This document shows positions 55,829-64,000 of a stretch of 64,000 nt of DNA, in pieces; positions within the stretch are counted from its first letter, which is position 1, and every line of letters starts with the position of its first letter. Position numbers and translations under genes: made by a program. The DNA is from an uncultured Haloferula sp. (GTDB lineage Bacteria > Verrucomicrobiota > Verrucomicrobiia > Verrucomicrobiales > Akkermansiaceae). Under the pieces are notes generated by a model. That model saw only the letters and a list, made by a program, of their open reading frames with translations, did no database searches and had not been told where the DNA came from. The DNA lies in contig CBFGTS010000001.1 in the NCBI GenBank assembly GCA_965652295.1, forward strand, positions 416,001 through 480,000, in the 5' to 3' direction.

Positions 55829-58507
55829 ATGAAACTCCGCTCCGTGCCGTTGCTGATCCTGGCCTGCGCGTCCGCCCACGCAGCGGACGAGAACCGCGCC
55901 GCGCCGGTGGATACGGCCACGCTGATGGCGGACCTCGACAACGAGTCCTACCCGGTGCGGGTGACCGCGACCCACGAGTTGTGGAGCCGGGGAAAGAAAG
56001 TCCTGCCGCTGCTCGAAAAGGCGGCGGTGGCGGACAGCCCGGAGAGCTCGGCACGGGCACGGGATCTGGTGCGCAAGATCCGGCTGGGCCTCACCCCCGA
56101 AAGCAAGCCGGAGTGGATCGGCTACATCGAGGCCTACGACGCGGCCAGCCCGCGCGAGCGGCGGGAAATCGTCTCCACCCTGAAGCGTGACGAGGCCTAC
56201 ATGCTGCTCCTGCGTCTCTACGAATTCGAGACGGATGAAGCGACCTTGGCGGTGCTGGCACCGGAGATGGAAGGCGTGGCGGTGGCGGCGGCGCGCGAGC
56301 TGCTTTTCAAAGGAGACGTCAAACCGGAGCGCATCCTGGAGGTGCTGGAACTCGGTCGCCCCGAGCCGGCGCAATGGATGGCGCTGGCCGATTTCCACCG
56401 GGTCCACGGGAGCTTGGAAAAGGAACTGAAAGAAGCCCGCGCGGACCGGACCCCGGATGGCTTCCTGTGGCGGGCGTGCCTGCACGCGGCGGCGGGTCGT
56501 CCGCTGGAAGCCGCGCGTGAGGCGGATGCCGGAGGGTTTCCCGATGCGGTGGCGCGCTGGCGGCTGCTCGGCGGCGACCCGGTGCCGTGGATCCTGCGGG
56601 CCGAGGCACCGCAGCACGAGATCGTTCCTGAATCTCTGGAGGCCTATCGCGACGCCGTCCGCGGCCTTTGGGAGGGCCGGCCGGTGCCGAATGCATTGGT
56701 CGATGAGCTGGCGGGCACCGTGTCCGGGGCCATGGATGACGAAAGCTGGCACTCGGTGGCGGTGCTCTACGCGCTGGGGGCGCGGGAGGAGGGAGACGAG
56801 GGTTTTCGGAAAATCTCGCCGACCGCCGCGTTCAACCACTTCGACAGCAGCGAGCGGATCGACGAGGCGCTGCAGCTGCTGGGACTCGATCCCGCCGAGC
56901 CTGACTTCGCCGCCTGGATCCGGCCGCGTTTCGACCGCATGCTGCGGGAGGCCGACGATGCCGAGGTGGCCCGCGAGGAGCTGAAAACCCTCGGTGGCTT
57001 CATGGAGCGGCGCGGTCTCGTCGAAGAAGCGGCGGCCTTGTTCGTTCCGCCACTGCTGGAGATTGCCGCGAAGGACCCCGAGTGGTTCTGCGATCTTTTG
57101 GCGGACTTTTTCCTTTCCGACTCGATCGATCATCAGGACCGACTGACGGAGGCGGTCCTGCAAGCCGGAGCGGCCTTCGCCGGTGGGGATCAGGGACGCC
57201 TCTCGATGGTGCGGGCCTCGCTGTTGGGTGAGGAACTGCTGAGCTCGGAACTCTGGAGCCAACTGGAGCGGGAGCAGGGCGATCGGCCGGCGGTCGACCG
57301 TCTGCGATTGGCGGCGACGCTGCTCGGCAAGCTTTCGGATTCGTCCGGCGAAGCGGATCAATGGTGGGCCGCGCAGCTCGCCGATCAGCCGAAGAAGGGC
57401 GATCGCACCGACGAGCTGCGCTGGGCCCTCCTGCTGCGTCTTGCGGGAGGCGACTCCAATGCGGCGCGGTTTCTGGAAATCGAGGACATCCTCGAGAAGA
57501 CCGGCGTGAGCCTTGATCCCGTCGACGCCCTTCTCGAAGACATCCAGCTGGAGGCGGTCCGGTTGCAGAACCTCGAGCTGGCGGGCCGGTGGAGCGAGGT
57601 GCTGGCGGAATACCGGAAGCATTTCGAGAGCACCCCGCGCTCCGCCCCGCGCCTCGCCGCCATGGCCGCCGTTTCCCGCCTCGCGGGGGATCCGGACGAG
57701 GCCGCGCGGCTGGAGAAACGCATGGAGGCGATCATCCTCGGTGATACCTCACTCATGATCCAGGTATCCCGCGTCTATGCCGGCAAAGGCGACCATGCCC
57801 GCTCCAGGGAGTGGATCCGGAGGGCGGCGATGATGTCCACGAAAAGCGACGAAGTCTTTCTCCTGTGCTGCAACGACGTGGGCAACGAGGCGAAGTACAC
57901 GGAAGACTGGCCATTGGCCGCCTCCCTGGGCGAGGTCATCATGCTTTCGGCCGTGATGCGCGGGGACACCGCTTTTGACGATCCTTCCGTGCTGCTGCGC
58001 GGGCGGGCGTCGATCGAACTGTGCCGCGCGCTCGCGGACATCGAGGCGGGGCGGCGGGACGAAGGCATGGCCTACCTCGAACGCTGGCGCGATGCGGTGT
58101 ACGACGCTCCCGAGATGGCGGATCACTACTTCGCGGCCTTCCGCAAAGCGGGGCTGACCGCGATGCACGACGCGTGGTTCGAAGCGACCTGGAAGCGCCT
58201 CAGTGGAGTGCTGGCGGATTATCCTCGCAGCGCCAATACGCTCAACACCGCCGCCTGGGTGGCCGGCCGCGCGAGCCGGCGGCTGAAGGAAGCCCACGAC
58301 TGCGCCACGCGGGCGCTGGCGATCGAGCCGCACCAATGGAGCTATCTCGACACCATGGCCGAGGTCTGGTTCGCCCGTCGTGACCGCGCGCAGGCGATCG
58401 AGTGGGGGGACCGGGCGCGGAATCACTTCTTCGGCCAGACCGCAAGCCTGACTGAAATGCTGCGGCAGAACCGACGCTTTCACCGGGGTGGGTTTCCGCC
58501 TCCCTGA
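55829..58507 (+). CDS. Large secreted alpha-helical/TPR-like hypothetical protein
   Basis: Signal peptide; C-terminal TPR-like LNTAAW...YLDTMAEVWF. Confidence 0.8.
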   Translation: MKLRSVPLLILACASAHAADENRAAPVDTATLMADLDNESYPVRVTATHELWSRGKKVLPLLEKAAVADSPESSARARDLVRKIRLGLTPESKPEWIGYIEAYDAASPRERREIVSTLKRDEAYMLLLRLYEFETDEATLAVLAPEMEGVAVAAARELLFKGDVKPERILEVLELGRPEPAQWMALADFHRVHGSLEKELKEARADRTPDGFLWRACLHAAAGRPLEAAREADAGGFPDAVARWRLLGGDPVPWILRAEAPQHEIVPESLEAYRDAVRGLWEGRPVPNALVDELAGTVSGAMDDESWHSVAVLYALGAREEGDEGFRKISPTAAFNHFDSSERIDEALQLLGLDPAEPDFAAWIRPRFDRMLREADDAEVAREELKTLGGFMERRGLVEEAAALFVPPLLEIAAKDPEWFCDLLADFFLSDSIDHQDRLTEAVLQAGAAFAGGDQGRLSMVRASLLGEELLSSELWSQLEREQGDRPAVDRLRLAATLLGKLSDSSGEADQWWAAQLADQPKKGDRTDELRWALLLRLAGGDSNAARFLEIEDILEKTGVSLDPVDALLEDIQLEAVRLQNLELAGRWSEVLAEYRKHFESTPRSAPRLAAMAAVSRLAGDPDEAARLEKRMEAIILGDTSLMIQVSRVYAGKGDHARSREWIRRAAMMSTKSDEVFLLCCNDVGNEAKYTEDWPLAASLGEVIMLSAVMRGDTAFDDPSVLLRGRASIELCRALADIEAGRRDEGMAYLERWRDAVYDAPEMADHYFAAFRKAGLTAMHDAWFEATWKRLSGVLADYPRSANTLNTAAWVAGRASRRLKEAHDCATRALAIEPHQWSYLDTMAEVWFARRDRAQAIEWGDRARNHFFGQTASLTEMLRQNRRFHRGGFPPP

Positions 58508-58556
58508 TTCCGGGCTTGCCCGCCGGGGTCATGCGAGGGCATATCCCGGGCCGAAC

Positions 58557-58644
58557 GGAGGGGTGGCAGAGTGGTCGAATGCGCCGGTCTTGAAAACCGG
58601 AGACGGGAAACTGTCCGTGGGTTCGAATCCCACCCCCTCCGCCA
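58557..58644 (+). tRNA. tRNA-Ser (anticodon TGA)
   Basis: GGAGGGG/CCCCTCC acceptor stem, CCGGT-CT-TGA-AA-ACCGG anticodon arm, long variable arm, GGTTCGAATCC, CCA. Confidence 0.96.
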
Positions 58645-58870
58645 CGACCCGACTCCAGCTTGCTGGAGTCGGGTCGTGGCGTATGCGGAGGGAGGCAATC
58701 CCTCCCGGAGCGGAGCGCAGGAGGGTTTGAAAACAGGAAGCTGATGTTATCGGCGGCATTCCTCGGCGAGCATAGCGAGCGAAACCGGTTTGGTGTGAGG
58801 AGCGGCTTGTCCGCCGTAGCTCTAAGAGCGAAGGAGGAAGCGTCGCCCTGATTTCTCCCGCTCCGCCGAC
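58645..58870 (+). repeat. tRNA-linked structured repeat with nested REP-like palindrome
   Basis: Long hairpin, GGAGGGA-GGCAA-TCCCTCC hairpin, 38-nt core shared with 25637-25674, nested GCTTGTCCGCCGTAGCTCTAAGAGCGAAGGAGGAAGC, weak tRNA-end-like CTCCGCC near 58861. Confidence 0.7.
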
Positions 58871-59160
58871 GACCAGTGAAGCAGAAAGATAGGCCGACAA
58901 AACGCTGGCTTGTCCTGGCATGGCCGAAATCCCTAAGTTGCGACGGCTAACAGCCGCCGCCTTTTTCTTTCCCATGCACTGGACCGAACCCGCCTCCGCC
59001 GAAGACTCGCATTCCGAACTCGAGAAACAGCTCTGGGGCGCGGCGAACCAAATGTGGGCGAATGCCGACCTCAAGCCGTCCGAGTTCTCGCCCGTCGTCC
59101 TCGGCCTAATCTTTCTGCGCTATGCCGATGTCCGCTTCGCTGCCGTGGAGGCGGATATGG

Positions 59161-59185
59161 GTAGGGACGATCGGCCCGATCGTCC
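59161..59185 (+). repeat. GTAG-type REP palindrome inside hsdM
   Basis: GTAG followed by GGACGATCGG-C-CCGATCGTCC (perfect 10-bp inverted repeat). Confidence 0.8.
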
Positions 59186-59525
59186 GACTTCCCGCCGCAG
59201 ACGCACCATCGGCCCCGCGGACTACCACGCCGCGGGGGTGATCTATTTGCCGAAGAAAGCGCGGTTCGCCTACCTGCTGTCCCTGCCCGAGGGGCTGAAT
59301 GTGGGTCATGAGATCAACGAGGCCATGCGCGCCGTCGAGAAGGAGAACCCGGACCTCGCCGACGTCCTGCCGAAGACCTACCAGATCCTCGAGAACCGCA
59401 CGCTCGCCGAGCTGCTCAAGGTCATGGCCTCCATCCCCATGGACAAGGGCGGCGACACCTTCGGCCTCATCTACGAATACTTCCTCGGCAAGTTCGCCAT
59501 GTCCGAAGGGCAGAAGGGCGGCGAA

Positions 59526-59588
59526 TGGAGCGGAGCGACATGGACGACCATAGGGAGCCCGGAGGGTTGGCGCGGGGGCGCCAATCAA
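59526..59588 (+). mobile_element. 63-nt in-frame multi-hairpin insertion in GGE^FYTP
   Basis: Adds [21 protein letters not shown]; hairpins ATGG/CCAT, GCCC-GGA-GGGT, TTGGCGC/GCGCCAA; ends AATCAA. Confidence 0.8.
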
Positions 59589-59687
59589 TTCTACACGCCC
59601 ACCTCCATCGTCCGCCTCATCGTCGAGATCCTCGAGCCCTACCACGGGCGCATCTACGATCCCGCCTGCGGTTCCGGCGGCATGTTT

Positions 59688-59753
59688 GCCTCCTACCGTC
59701 GGCCATGCGGGATCCGCTTCGCGGGCAGGAGACGCGCAAGCGCGAGGGGCATT
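59688..59753 (+). mobile_element. 66-nt in-frame structured insertion in GSGGMF^VQS
   Basis: Adds [25 protein letters not shown] direct repeat at the junctions; internal hairpins CCGC-TTC-GCGG and CGC-GCAA-GCG. Confidence 0.75.
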
Positions 59754-59824
59754 GTCCAGTCCGCCCGCTTCGTGGAGAACCACCACAAGAACCCGATCTC
59801 GGAAATCTCCTGCCACGGCCAGGA

Positions 59825-59902
59825 CAAATGGGCGTGGGGTGCCCATTTGAGACGTGCGCAGCGCGCCCGCAGGGTGAGGCAGCGGCGGAAGCTGCCGAAT
59901 CA
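59825..59902 (+). mobile_element. 78-nt in-frame multi-hairpin insertion splitting the Glu codon of GQE
   Basis: GA[CAAATGGGC..GCCCATTTG ... GCCC-GCA-GGGT ... GGCAGC..GCTGCC-GAATCA]A; removal restores GAA and [11 protein letters not shown]. Confidence 0.8.
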
Positions 59903-60346
59903 ACGGGTCACCGAGACCAGCCGCCTCGCCCGGCTCAACCTCGCCGTCCACGGCCTCAGCGGCGACATCCGCCAGGGAAACACCTATTACGAGGACCTCC
60001 ACGACTCCGTCGGCCGCTTCGACTTCGTCCTCGCCAATCCGCCCTTCAACGTCAGCAAGATCGACAAGGAGCGCCTCGCCGACGACCCGCGCTACGCCTT
60101 CGGCCTGCCGCGCACCGACAATGGCAACTACCTCTGGATCCAGCACTTCCACGCCGCGCTGAATGCCACCGGCCGGGCCGGCTTCGTGATGGCGAACTCC
60201 GCCGCCGACGCCCGCGCCTCCGAGCAGGAGATCCGGGAAAAGCTGATCAAGAGCGGCCACGTCGACGTGATGATCTCCATCGGGCCAAAGGGAGATTCAA
60301 CTTGTCGTGTTCTCGCCGGTGCTATCCACATCGAAACCCTTAAATC

Positions 60347-63300
60347 ATGAAGATCAAAGTTCTTAATCCGGACGGAGTGCATGCCCGGGAGATTAAAGGC
60401 CTCGCAGCCCTCAAGGAAGCACTCCCCAACGAATGGTACGGGTATGCCTCTCTTGAGTTGGTCGGCGAGAACGGAGGGGAAATTGACCTCGTGATCTGCG
60501 CTGAGGATCGCCTGATTGCGGTCGAAATCAAAGATTGGAACGGAAAGATTGAAGACCTCGGTCCGTATTGGCGAACGAGCGGGCGAGAACAGAAGTCACC
60601 CGTAGTCACGATTGCGGAAAAGTCGAAGAAGCTGGCAAGTAAGCTTAAGACCTTCCTTGCGCCAGAGCATCAAGCTCCATGGGTGGACCACTGCGTGCTG
60701 CTCACCGGTAAATCGCGAAGAAATGACCTGAGCGAAGACAGCAAAGACAAGACATTTGAGCTCGAGTTTTTCAAACGGATAGGCAATAAGGAGGTCTTCC
60801 GGGAGTGCTTTACTCACGAAGCCTGGTGTCGCACGCCGATTCACGACCTTAAGCCGAAACTCGACGTGTTTTTCGCTGGACCTCGTGTTCGCCCGTTAAG
60901 TTGTTCATACAACGGGTATAAGGCAAATGATGATCCGTGCTACACTCACCCGAAGCGGATCTACTCGGAGTATTTCGCAGAAAAGGAAGGAGCCAAAGGT
61001 TTCAAAGCGCTCTTGCGCCGCTGGGACTTCCATGAGCTAGGCAACGTCGATGCAACCTACCTGAACAAAGAGAATCGGACGACTCTCGCCCTAAGGGAAG
61101 AGAATGCAATCGGCTATCTTAGAGACGCAAAGCCTGAACTCGTAGGCCGAAACGTGTTCCTTGCGCCAATCTCGAATGAAGGGCGAGAGTCGGTCACCGA
61201 AAATTTTTTCGAACTTTACGACCTGCCCCGGGACTTGAGCCGTCTGAAAGAATCTTTGCGCCGCTATGGAGACTCGCTCAAGGACGATAATCGCATTTCA
61301 ATCGCACGTCTTCTTCTCCATCACCTCTCTGAACTTCACGAGCTTGAGGTCGCCCACAGGGATATTGGCGAGCATTGCATCTGGATCAGCGTTCCCGACA
61401 AAGTTTCGCTTTCAGGCTTTGCGACCAGTTCGTTCCCCGAACAGAAAACAGTGGCTCAGATCCGAGAAACAATCCGTGGCGGAGGGGAGCGGATCCCCGA
61501 AGAGTTACTGGACCTGAAGTCCAACAATTTTCGGAAGGATGTCTTTCTCCTAGGCTCGGTCGTCCACCAAATCTTGTTCGGAACCAAGCCGAGACTTGTC
61601 GATGGGGTTCCGACGTGGCACCCGCCAACGAATGGCAAGTTCGATCAATTCTGGGGATGGTTTGATCGGGCCTTAGAGCTCGATCCTGCGAAGCGTTTCT
61701 CGAACGCAACCTCGGCATTCGACGAGTTCCAGCGGTGCAGCAAGACATCCGAGTGCTTGGAATTCGATGAGAAGGATTTCCGTGAATTTGAGAAGTCGAT
61801 TCCGCCAATGCCAAGACTACCAGGTGACACAGTCCTCAGGCAGGATTCGGGTGGCTTGGTCTTTCATTCCGAATGCGGAGGAGGAGATGCTTGTCTTAAC
61901 AAGGTTTGGCCAGATGCCAAGTTCAAGCCCGGCGCTGTGGCCGAGAACTTCCATTTGCTAAGTTTTCTGGAGCGGATCCAACGTCTACAGATGGCCGACC
62001 TAGAATGCCAACAGCGGGTCCTTGATTTCGGGATAACAAGCTTCGGTTCCTACGTCGTCCTGAAGTGGGAAGGCGGGCAATGTCTTGAGGAGTTTGAAGG
62101 GGAGAGTTTCGACGACGAGGCCGGGCTGGCTTTCGTCCGAGCTCTTGTGCAGGCGGTGGCGGATCTCCACCGATGCCAAATCTTCCATGGGGATCTCAAA
62201 CCCGGGAACATTCTCTATGCACTAGGCGAGGAAGGTGAGACGACGATCCGCCTCATCGATCTCGTGGATTTCGCACCGGCAGGAACGGAACGGCGGTCAT
62301 CCGCTTACCTTCCCCCGGAAGGTGAGGAGGCTACCACGCCTGGGTGCGACGGCTATGCGTTGAAAAAGATCGTCACCGATTTCGTCCTACCTCGCATGCC
62401 CGGAATGTCCAAAGCACTTGCGGAGCGGATCACCGCAATCTTGGGCGATATGGTGGACCCCGATGGGGGTATTCCGGATGTGAAAGGTGCTTTGGATGAG
62501 CTGGCAAACCCTTTTGATGCCGATGATGAATCCTCATCGGGATCCCGAGAAGAGCTTGTTATTTCTATGGGGGGGATTGAGAGAGAGATCCTCATGATGC
62601 CGGATGACCGGGGGCTTCCGGTTACGATTTCACGCGACCGAGACGATCCTGAAAGCTTCGTCGTCCGAGTCACTGATTCCGCTCATTGTCTGGGGCTGCT
62701 AGTCAACGCTCCGCGGAAGGCGATAACTAAGATATGGCAGCAGCCGGCGACGATCATGGATCTGGCCCAGAACCTCCGATGGAAGGCCTCCCTGCTTGAA
62801 AGGCCGCTACGTATTCTGCGGAGTCAGGCAGACGACCTCACGGCCTTAAATGAGCTTCTGGATGAGCTGGCCATCTTTTCCGAGCTGGATAAACTATATC
62901 GCAAGGAAGTACAGGCCACGCGGGAGGAAGAGACGCTAGCAAGTCAAGTCGGCCACGATTTCAATGAAGCCGGTTCAGATGAATCCGATCAGGCACCCAG
63001 CCAAACGCCTGAAACTCCGCTCGTCGATGTTCCCCTCGATCTCTTCTGGGAAGCTCTGCTTGATGCCGAGGCCAGGATCGTCCCAGTTATGGCTGTCACT
63101 GACGAACCTGTGGAAATCCGATCTTCAGGGATACTTGTTCTTCCGGTCGGAGAGCCATCAGCGCCATTCGACCCCCAAGATGATGAGCCAGTAGAAGTCC
63201 AGACACAGGATCCTGCAGGGGAGTGGCGCTACTTTGGTAATCTCGACAACCGGAGGAGCCAAAATGGGCGGCTTGCTGTGGTTCCCAAGGCCAGGGGCAC

Positions 63301-64000
63301 CTTCCGACCGCGAACGGGCACGGCACTCCGACTGGAGAACAAAGCATCACGTGCCTCGTATTTGAAGCGGCTTGCCGCAGTTCAGCGGATCGTAGGCCGG
63401 GATTCCGTGTGCCCCGAGCTTTTCGATTACTTCGGCGGGGACGGCTGCCTTGACTCTCTGCCCGGTCGCTTTGCAGGCAAGTTGGACGGGCTCGACGCAT
63501 ACGGCCTCAATCCGGTGCAAAGAGATGCGCTGGAGACAGCATTGAAATGTTCTCCCCTTGCTATGATCCAAGGCCCACCGGGTACTGGAAAGACCGGGGT
63601 TATTTCGGCTGCGGCGCACTACATCGCGACGAACTTCCCCACCGCCAAGATTCTCGTGGTCAGTCAGTCTCACGAAGCAATCGACCACGCTACTGAACAG
63701 ATCGTGAAGCGTTTTCGCAAGCAAGGCGATGAGCCTTCTCTGGTTCGTGTGGGACGGCGGGCTGCGATCAGTGACAATCTGATTTCGTTCCACTCAGAGT
63801 CCCTGCAGGGGGAGTATCGCGAACGGTTCCGGCTATCCCTTACCCAACGAATTCTACCGCTGGGCAGTCGGCTGGGATTGAGCGAGGCGTTCGCGGAAAG
63901 CCTCGCAGTGATAAGAGCGCGGTTGGTTCCGCTTCTACAGCAGCTTGGTCCAGAGCCGTCCGGAGAGGAGGCGGAAATTGATCCGGCCCTGCGACGGCAC
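60347..64000 (+). CDS. NERD nuclease - kinase-like - Ser/Thr kinase - SF1 (UPF1/DNA2-like) helicase fusion, >1218 aa, runs off window; candidate anti-phage protein (Mokosh MkoA-like)
   Basis: Manual translation of sampled segments, all in one frame: [15 protein letters not shown] (NERD), AHRDIGEH (about 61355), [17 protein letters not shown] (about 62186), [10 protein letters not shown] (63572-63595), [12 protein letters not shown]; absent from the ORF track, consistent with no stop inside the window. Confidence 0.88.

Follow-up and report, generated by a model that had tools for sequence, protein, structure and literature searches.

The stretch of DNA considered here (the window) comprises 64,000 nucleotides of an uncultured Haloferula sp. 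(assembly GCA_965652295.1, contig CBFGTS010000001.1, positions 416,001 to 480,000 of the forward strand), whose genome was assembled to 4.37 Mb in 35 contigs with 63.5% GC. It contains hsdM, the methylase gene of a Type I restriction-modification (R-M) system, which is interrupted by four short segments, here called ins0 to ins3 (Table 1). The gene is identified by its Pfam domains and, in alignment, by the motifs X (FYTP), I (DPACGSGG), II (GQE/D) and IV (NPPF); by their source names, close relatives belong to Luteolibacter and Haloferula, which puts the genome within the Verrucomicrobiales. The surrounding open reading frame (ORF) was listed as 58920-60350 (+), and the start of the orthologues, MHWTEP, corresponds to the ATG at 58974. 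Homology does not extend beyond ...DVMISIGP(K), near 60285-60290: in the alignments the last ~200 residues, roughly the C-terminal third, are gone. Because the homology ends early, the GC content drops there (0.64-0.67 in hsdM, 0.51-0.58 from ~60200) and a large NERD gene begins at 60347, the gene is a dead remnant, with its 3' end cut off by lower-GC DNA. Neither hsdS nor hsdR lies 3' of this remnant within the window.

Table 1. Features of the hsdM locus, in window coordinates. R1 is the covariance model of family 1; X, G and L numbers denote sequencing runs, genomes and loci.
Feature	Position	Strand	Evidence
tRNA-Ser(tga)	58557..58644	+	ARAGORN; Rfam tRNA 64.7 bits
hsdM remnant (Type I R-M methylase)	58974..60290	+	Pfam HsdM_N, N6_Mtase; alignments; GC fall
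ins0, GTAG-tagged REP-type hairpin, 25 nt	59161..59185	+	DNA fold -9.9 kcal/mol, z -2.06; compensating stem changes
ins1, family-1 element, 63 nt	59525..59587	+	empty sites; R1 82.2 bits; covariation; X3 allele without ins1
ins2, 66 nt, after ...CGSGGMF (motif I)	59687..59752	+	empty sites; related copies in four loci
ins3, family-3 element, 78 nt	59825..59902	+	empty sites; family copies; covariation; X3, X5 and X14 alleles without ins3; G295 copy
lower-GC gene (NERD, protein-kinase-like, AAA_11 helicase)	60347..64000	+	ORF list, Pfam, composition

Insert-free orthologues bear out the four segments, which the initial annotation had described as palindromic inserts. The fourth of these is the 25-nt GTAG hairpin, and the palindromy does not extend to ins2, which folds no better than shuffled sequence (z-score of the DNA fold +0.09, compared with -2.06 for ins0, and -1.89 and -2.54 for ins1 and ins3) and is not notably palindromic. 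The three longer inserts have clean empty sites in orthologues, at the lengths and places first ascribed to them (63, 66 and 78 nt; at GGE^FYTP, after the S-adenosylmethionine (SAM) motif, and in the Glu codon of GQE), and their removal restores uninterrupted HsdM motifs, as first stated. ins1 sits in GGCGA^ATTC, coding GGE^FYTP (motif X), and nucleotide comparison gives its empty site as GGCGG(G/C)GA^ATTCTAC, with a boundary that is ambiguous by one base. The empty site of ins2 is, by the same comparison, ATGTT(C/T)^GTCCAG. ins3 sits in CAGGA^A, within the Glu codon of GQE (motif II), where an acidic residue is retained (GAC, Asp). Its empty site is CAGGA^(G)CGGGTC, the net difference being 78 nt; every empty allele found has a G where the occupied allele has an A. 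There is no target duplication between empty and occupied sites. Protein alignment of 14 database orthologues shows the ins1 site occupied in four, the ins2 site in none and the ins3 site in one, and each of the three sites is empty in all seven same-genus genomic loci; among 120 proteins, the window's included, the numbers are 5, 1 and 2. The inserts are free of stops, as first noted, but this is weak evidence at 64-67% GC, where ~60% of the frames in shuffled copies are open. Freedom from stops was accordingly dropped as a sign of coding adaptation, the open frames being only modestly above the shuffle expectation.

The smallest segment, ins0, consists of GTAG and a stem of 9-10 bp and is read in frame as the peptide GRDDRPDRP, within a loop of the N-terminal domain that is variable. 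The hairpin is present with compensating stem changes in the orthologous loci L003 and L004 and missing from L005-L007. A terminal GTAG tetranucleotide beside a stem (5-13 bp by the usual definition) marks the GTAG-tagged repetitive extragenic palindromic (REP) sequences, and the own genome holds five hairpins of the form GTAGGGAC..GTCC, ins0 included, as well as genes resembling REP-associated tyrosine transposases (RAYTs).

ins1 belongs to a family of dispersed repeats (family 1). Its layout is a 5' GAGCGGAGCGA block, hairpin A, CCCGNAGGG, hairpin C and ATCA. A BLAST search with ins1 against 401 genomes of the order yielded 30 fetched loci with 31 confirmed copies, and 21 full copies align over 67 columns with the same succession of 5' block, hairpin A, invariant CCCGNAGGG, hairpin C and an end in ATCAA; the alignment contains no conserved GTAG or CGTC tag. 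The three-helix structure of these 21 copies is supported by 8 of 15 pairs that are changed on both sides. Furthermore, 94.3% of cells are paired, compared with 35-41% when the partners are slid, and the covariation score was reached by none of 500 shuffles. The proposal of a non-autonomous family of structured elements is thus supported by copies elsewhere and by the covariation of their hairpins. In the own genome, R1 finds ins1 (82.2 bits), a weak partial match at ins3 (17.3 bits, E 0.05) and nothing else; similarly, blastn-short detected no further copy of any insert there. In other genomes, where 150 candidates per genome were scored and the counts are lower bounds, R1 matches at least 43 places in G056, 42 in G253, 36 in G117, 33 in G247, 27 in G216, 24 in G145 and 9 in G383.

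ins3 defines a second family (family 3), arranged as hairpin 1, a middle hairpin, CCCGCAGGG, hairpin 3 and GAATCA. BLAST with ins3 matched 28 of the 401 genomes, the window's included, with 30 places in 27 genomes besides the window copy. In this family's 3' hairpin both partners have changed in 4 of 6 pairs, and paired cells make up 99.1%. Copies of family 3 share GA^A, and the acidic residue at the end of motif II is retained (GAC or GAA). The initial annotation had noted a layout common to ins1 and ins3, namely GCCCGNAGGGT, a terminal hairpin and AATCA. This layout recurs in both families, family 3 sharing a GCCCGNAGGGTGAG-hairpin-GAATCA module with family 1, and the weak match of R1 to ins3 agrees with it. 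Families 1 and 3 are therefore related dispersed repeat families of the Verrucomicrobiales, both built from a 5' block, two or three hairpins, the invariant CCCGNAGGG mini-hairpin and a terminal ...ATCA. For ins2 the situation is different: BLAST against 301 genomes gave no close DNA copy, only partial matches of 21-39 nt. A related insert of ~69 nt is found at this CGSGG^ site in another HsdM subfamily (L035, L036, L072 and L077); as L077 equals L035 and L072 equals L036 letter for letter, these represent two distinct sequences.

One could argue that segments such as these reflect only the decay of a dead gene, through local templated or slipped insertions or variable loops, without any element family. 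The truncation of the gene would fit this idea, as would ins2, which lacks both DNA relatives beyond hsdM and a significant fold. The tens of relatives of ins1 and ins3 in other genomes, with their compensatory changes, speak against it, and it is already contradicted for ins0, ins1 and ins3. Moreover, the ratio of nonsynonymous to synonymous substitution rates (dN/dS) on the terminal branch of the window hsdM is ~0.22, like that of its relatives, and decay is a very improbable explanation of the whole.

The sites of insertion are defined by a short target. In four sets that together comprise 71 copies, the proposed insertion at GA^A is found as GA^A or CA^A: position -1 is an A in 70/71 copies and position -2 a G or C in 69/71, while an A stands 3' of the insert, followed mostly by T, with C two bases on. 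This consensus, SAATWC for family 1, derives in part from copies in hsdM; the G253 set, which contains no hsdM, gives SA^ATCC, which is similar, not identical. The empty hsdM of orthologue L002 has exactly two SAATWC sites on its top strand, TACGA^ATACTTC (LIYE^YFL) and GGGGA^ATTCTAC (GGE^FYT), and these are the two recurrent family-1 sites in orthologues. Family 1 is present at six or more different hsdM sites, all of which are consistent with the short target. The conserved motifs are struck repeatedly because this target coincides with the Glu-Phe and Glu-Tyr codon pairs (GAA TTC, GAA TAC).

Outside hsdM, family 1 is found in varied surroundings. The copies in G145 are 67-70 nt long, which is not a multiple of three, and intergenic. 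In G253, where the 20 best regions were examined, all 18 full copies measure 63 nt regardless of context; most lie within heptamer arrays such as (TCCGCAA)n, and one is nested in another family-1 copy. Tandem heptamer arrays, (TCCGCAA)n, (AATGACG)n or AATGAAC-like, often surround family-1 copies at loci L189-L208 (G253), L032-L045 (genus g12) and L046-L064 (G145), and two variable loops of HsdM orthologues are filled by similar heptamer-encoded peptides (NRQSAIGN, PPLITDHSALIT). One G253 locus (L192, G253:C158:5382-12094) is an array of small ORFs (120-300 aa) spaced by repeats of 83-192 nt that hold both full and partial copies of family 1, one of them nested in another, a layout that recalls a cassette array. 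In G056, the family-1 module is nested inside a MITE (a miniature transposable element with inverted repeats) of ~260 nt (L097-L115) with 20-nt inverted ends (TAGCCCGCATTTCTCATACC...); the module is internal, and at least 14 copies of this MITE were aligned at full length. The ORFs that span G253 copies matched a Pfam family in 5 of 22 cases (PSCyt1/2, GT2, Y2_Tnp, DUF1552, DUF7133), and HsdM in none of the 22.

The best BLAST hits of ins1 have a different host range. Of their 24 GC-rich copies, hsdM genes of two subfamilies account for 18, hsdR and a sulfatase gene for one each, and 4 are unassigned; the hsdM hosts were mostly recognized by eye from motif strings, Pfam having been applied to the window, L022, L026 and L039. 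Hosts other than hsdM thus include hsdR and sulfatase, PSCyt, GT2 and DUF7133 genes. Between the window HsdM and a member of the other HsdM subfamily (L017, L018), ins1 is identical at 63/64 positions, whereas the flanks agree at 97/150 and 104/150, indicating that the element moves independently of its host gene. At L019, L038 and L040, the left flank of one family-1 site, ..NMDAAE, and the right flank of a different one, FYTPSCVV, are connected by just one element. The junction amounts to a deletion of ~170 codons by recombination between two copies in one hsdM.

A DUF559/Vsr-like nuclease domain is found in frame in some Type I genes, both in hsdM (L005 and the proteins P0003, P0018 and P0089) and in hsdR (L209:12055-15702, G295). 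In L005 it is bracketed by CCCTCTCC..GGAGAGGG hairpins. The bracketing hairpins recur, minus the nuclease, in several orthologues at another hsdM site, an apparent DUF559 cassette shell that lacks the ORF. These cassettes lend some plausibility to the idea of homing, according to which the elements would be specialized on Type I R-M genes, a sequence-specific nuclease, perhaps of this type, would cut conserved motif DNA, repair would copy the element, and the short inserts would be nuclease-less derivatives. Consistent with this idea, one family is found at one and the same motif of two HsdM subfamilies, between which the element is 98% and the flanks 65-69% identical, and hsdM or hsdR host 19 of the 24 GC-rich family-1 copies from the best BLAST hits. 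Similarly, the base 3' of the insert is G in empty and A in occupied alleles, both at ins3 and at one REP site, as co-conversion would give. Nevertheless, the hairpins that bracket the DUF559 cassettes belong to neither family 1 nor family 3, many copies of both families lie outside R-M genes, in intergenic DNA or in unrelated genes, and the sites of family 1 in hsdM, at least six in number, all fit the short target; in addition, one copy is nested in another. Homing is thus quite unlikely, and the targeting of motifs is explained by the short target sequence.

A candidate for the mobilizing enzyme was the RAYT of G117 (NF047646, 80.9 bits at a cut-off of 80), which has inverted R1 matches on both sides. 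It was rejected as the mobilizer of family 1, its flanks being family-1 insertions into another REP. Both REPs that flank this gene (L142/L159, G117:C4) carry the family-1 insertion at the same position (GGA^), and the base that follows is A; in the empty homologous REPs it is G, which repeats the G-to-A difference of the ins3 site. The five closest homologues of this RAYT (80-88% identical) have no R1 matches and are flanked by a different REP, so that R1 matches occur in the flanks of one of six RAYT loci (L159-L164); the RAYT of G145 has its own flanking GTAG REP. All five genomes checked contain genes of the Y1 type, among them the own genome with its lack of extra copies, and no Y1 transposase gene flanked by the elements was found. 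A search of G145 for longer elements starting with the 5' block gave 21 matches, of which ~19 are full short copies; the other two, each with 3 mismatches, lie near 254092 and 1273730, and no autonomous form was recognized among these matches. Also in G145, a 341-aa gene (L046:327-1352) lies between two inverted family-1 copies 1.4 kb apart; it is presumably RhuM-like and not a transposase.

Contigs from other metagenomes provide a view of the same locus in alleles at least 95% alike, and speak for presence, not frequencies. Run X3 has an allele without ins1 (63 nt skipped, side 70) and shows ins2 both present and absent. In X5, ins2 is present and ins3 absent, and ins3 is missing from X3, X5 and the RNA-library run X14, each with a G at the site. 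As near-identical alleles in other metagenomes thus lack single inserts, the gain or precise loss of such inserts is recent. Elements of the IS200/IS605 type move as single strands by 'peel and paste', and an element of this kind, leaving no target duplication, could mechanistically be lost with precision. It has been proposed that the inserts are excisable, being precisely removed from DNA or RNA and thereby acting as an on/off switch of the methylase or as a mini-intron. Their position in catalytic motifs and their precise absence from near-identical alleles could be read in this way. The possible source run, X1, yielded only the fully occupied form, however, and no excised form, whether of DNA or RNA, was present in the contigs examined. 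The X14 contig is simply an empty allele, since it has the same G as the empty alleles in DNA. The RNA runs X14-X19 cover small shares of the stretch, and X14 contigs of relatives cover 16/30 bins, which bears neither on expression nor on splicing in this organism. Rfam found nothing in 58400-60500 beyond the tRNA and chance hits, nor anything in L192 or L197, and lengths of 63-78 nt are far below those of any known self-splicing intron. Finally, lengths divisible by three and open frames fit read-through, and the window copy lies in a truncated gene. A switch or mini-intron is consequently highly improbable.

Taken together, the segments are probably copies of selfish repeats that are small, rich in hairpins and non-autonomous and belong to the intragenic REP or Rickettsia palindromic element (RPE) kind; the window hsdM carries them as passengers. 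The mechanism would be transposition: an enzyme supplied in trans would put families 1 and 3 into [G/C]A^A, family 1 mostly into SA^AT(T/A)C, without inverted ends or duplication. The GC-rich subfamilies, 63/66 and 78/81 nt long and mostly stop-free, would then, in a genic copy, be translated into 21-27 residues. Since codon pairs such as Glu-Phe and Glu-Tyr recreate the target, GGE^FYTP and LIYE^YFL are struck repeatedly.

Several observations do not sit easily with this reading. No transposase or other mobilizing enzyme was identified for families 1 and 3. The enrichment of hsdM among the best GC-rich hits is not predicted by the short target alone. It may reflect mobile R-M genes that bring copies into family-free genomes, as in the window, given that none of the 22 spanning ORFs of G253 is an HsdM, and this is the weakest point of the argument. 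As all 18 copies in G253 are 63 nt long, length divisible by three is a property of the family and no proof of selection in hsdM. With neither DNA relatives outside hsdM nor a clear structure, ins2 is grouped with the others on weaker grounds. Lastly, of the five proteins interrupted at GGE^FYTP, four (P0001, P0003, P0005 and P0016) are visibly degraded, by truncation, C-terminal frameshift, internal deletion or a change of NPPF to NPSF.

A stronger version of the selfish-repeat reading would see in families 1 and 3 a distinct class of their own, so far undescribed: tagless elements with three hairpins, lengths that are divisible by three and suit read-through, a ~6-nt target (SA^ATWC) and a novel transposase. 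By landing time and again in the Glu-Phe and Glu-Tyr codon pairs of methylase motifs, such elements would remodel or disable Type I restriction systems in preference to other genes and travel with them from genome to genome. This version is unlikely. The initial annotation had likewise proposed an undescribed kind of element, which is not supported, as in-frame intragenic repeats of the REP and RPE kind are published, one of them in an N-6 DNA methylase (PMC3733652).

Whether a methylase tolerates such inserts is moot for the window, as its hsdM is truncated. A more informative case is found in G295, where an hsdM with a 99% identical copy of ins3 stands in an operon of hsdM, hsdS (with an overlapping start), three genes and hsdR, the last coding for 1215 residues with an in-frame DUF559 domain. 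All frames of this operon are open, which suggests that an insert-bearing HsdM may still work. The degraded proteins with an occupied GGE^FYTP site and the deletions at L019, L038 and L040 point the other way. The dN/dS of the window hsdM against 7 orthologues is 0.20-0.245, compared with 0.17-0.29 for other pairs, which gives no sign of relaxation along this lineage; as the inserts postdate the branch, the ratio is silent on the period after insertion. AlphaFold2 models of the window HsdM (mean pLDDT 58.1, residues 197-364 mostly below 50) and of the 686-residue P0014 (mean pLDDT 56.1, residues 201-385 mostly below 50) both leave the SAM-binding half at low confidence and say nothing firm on tolerance, both being made without an insert-free control.

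The surroundings of the gene bear on how the inserts reached this genome. The start of hsdM lies ~330 nt 3' of a tRNA-Ser gene, a spacing that is typical of island integration. Given this neighbour, the missing 3' end and the lack of other copies in the genome, the inserts may well have arrived by horizontal transfer with an acquired gene that is now dead. The ORF that abuts the truncated hsdM is very large (60347-64000, GC 0.51-0.58), exceeds the window end and combines a NERD domain with protein-kinase-like and AAA_11/UvrD-like helicase domains. It is outside the elements but marks the break of hsdM, and it has the look of a defence-type gene that took the place of the remaining R-M operon. 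Between the tRNA and hsdM (58645-58920), a long perfect hairpin lies directly 3' of the tRNA (~58645-58680), and the 240-nt spacer that follows contains GGAGCGGAGCG, an 11-mer of the family-1 5' block; R1 has no match there.

This odd gene can be explained by known mechanisms, as a short target matching conserved codon pairs mimics aiming at catalytic motifs. Two related repeat families are defined, with a usable covariance model, and such repeats inflate and fragment predicted proteins in the Verrucomicrobiales. Recombination between copies can, in addition, remove segments of genes. If insert-bearing methylases of the G295 type are active, they would show how much insertion the motifs X and II of a SAM-dependent methylase tolerate; if they are inactive, the repeats would be a recurrent route to the loss of restriction.

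Among the closest known systems are REPs with GTAG or CGTC tags. In Di Nocera 2013 (PMC3733652), these repeats lie inside known genes, where dimers or groups encode 20-30 residues, and their highest intragenic numbers are those of the verrucomicrobium Opitutus terrae. Genes of DNA metabolism are over-represented among the hosts, including one N-6 DNA methylase, Oter_3011 (supplementary file 3), and the words 'restriction' and 'methyl' are absent from the main text (PMC3733652). Like the intragenic REPs of that account, the window inserts are small, GC-rich and in frame in known genes, and ins0 has the GTAG tag. Unlike them, families 1 and 3 are asymmetric three-hairpin units without a conserved tag, which share a conserved 5' block and end in ATCA; moreover, they lie in catalytic motifs and not in loops alone, and no link to a RAYT was found.

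The window inserts can be compared with several other kinds of element. Dispersed copies, in-frame position, empty sites and structure are all found here, as in RPE-like and other intragenic repeats. RPEs, the classical parallel, are reportedly selfish palindromic repeats that are inserted in frame in protein genes and also lie between genes. The present elements resemble them in their in-frame position in coding genes, their lengths compatible with read-through and their intergenic copies; they differ from what is said of RPEs in phylum and sequence and in being shorter (63-81 nt). REPIN/RAYT systems and elements derived from IS200/IS605 are said to have subterminal hairpins, no terminal inverted repeats, no duplication and a short target. 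The two families are similarly dispersed and non-autonomous, with asymmetric, non-inverted ends, no duplication and a short target; in contrast to those systems, no Y1 gene flanked by them was found, and both flanks of their target appear conserved. Hairpin-rich, asymmetric elements without duplication resemble the products of single-strand transposition of the HUH type. The elements do not fit classical MITEs, as they have neither inverted repeats at their ends (ATGGAGCGG... and ...AATCA) nor a target duplication. Inteins and insertions of homing endonucleases reportedly also lie in frame in the most conserved motifs, with empty and occupied alleles. Unlike these, the inserts comprise 21-26 residues, with no capacity for a nuclease or splicing domain, and the short target explains their bias for motifs. 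A literature search, at the level of search results, returned no account of families 1 and 3 or of repeats in hsdM motifs. The kind of element is a known one; the two families, their target and their apparent aiming at methylase motifs are new details.

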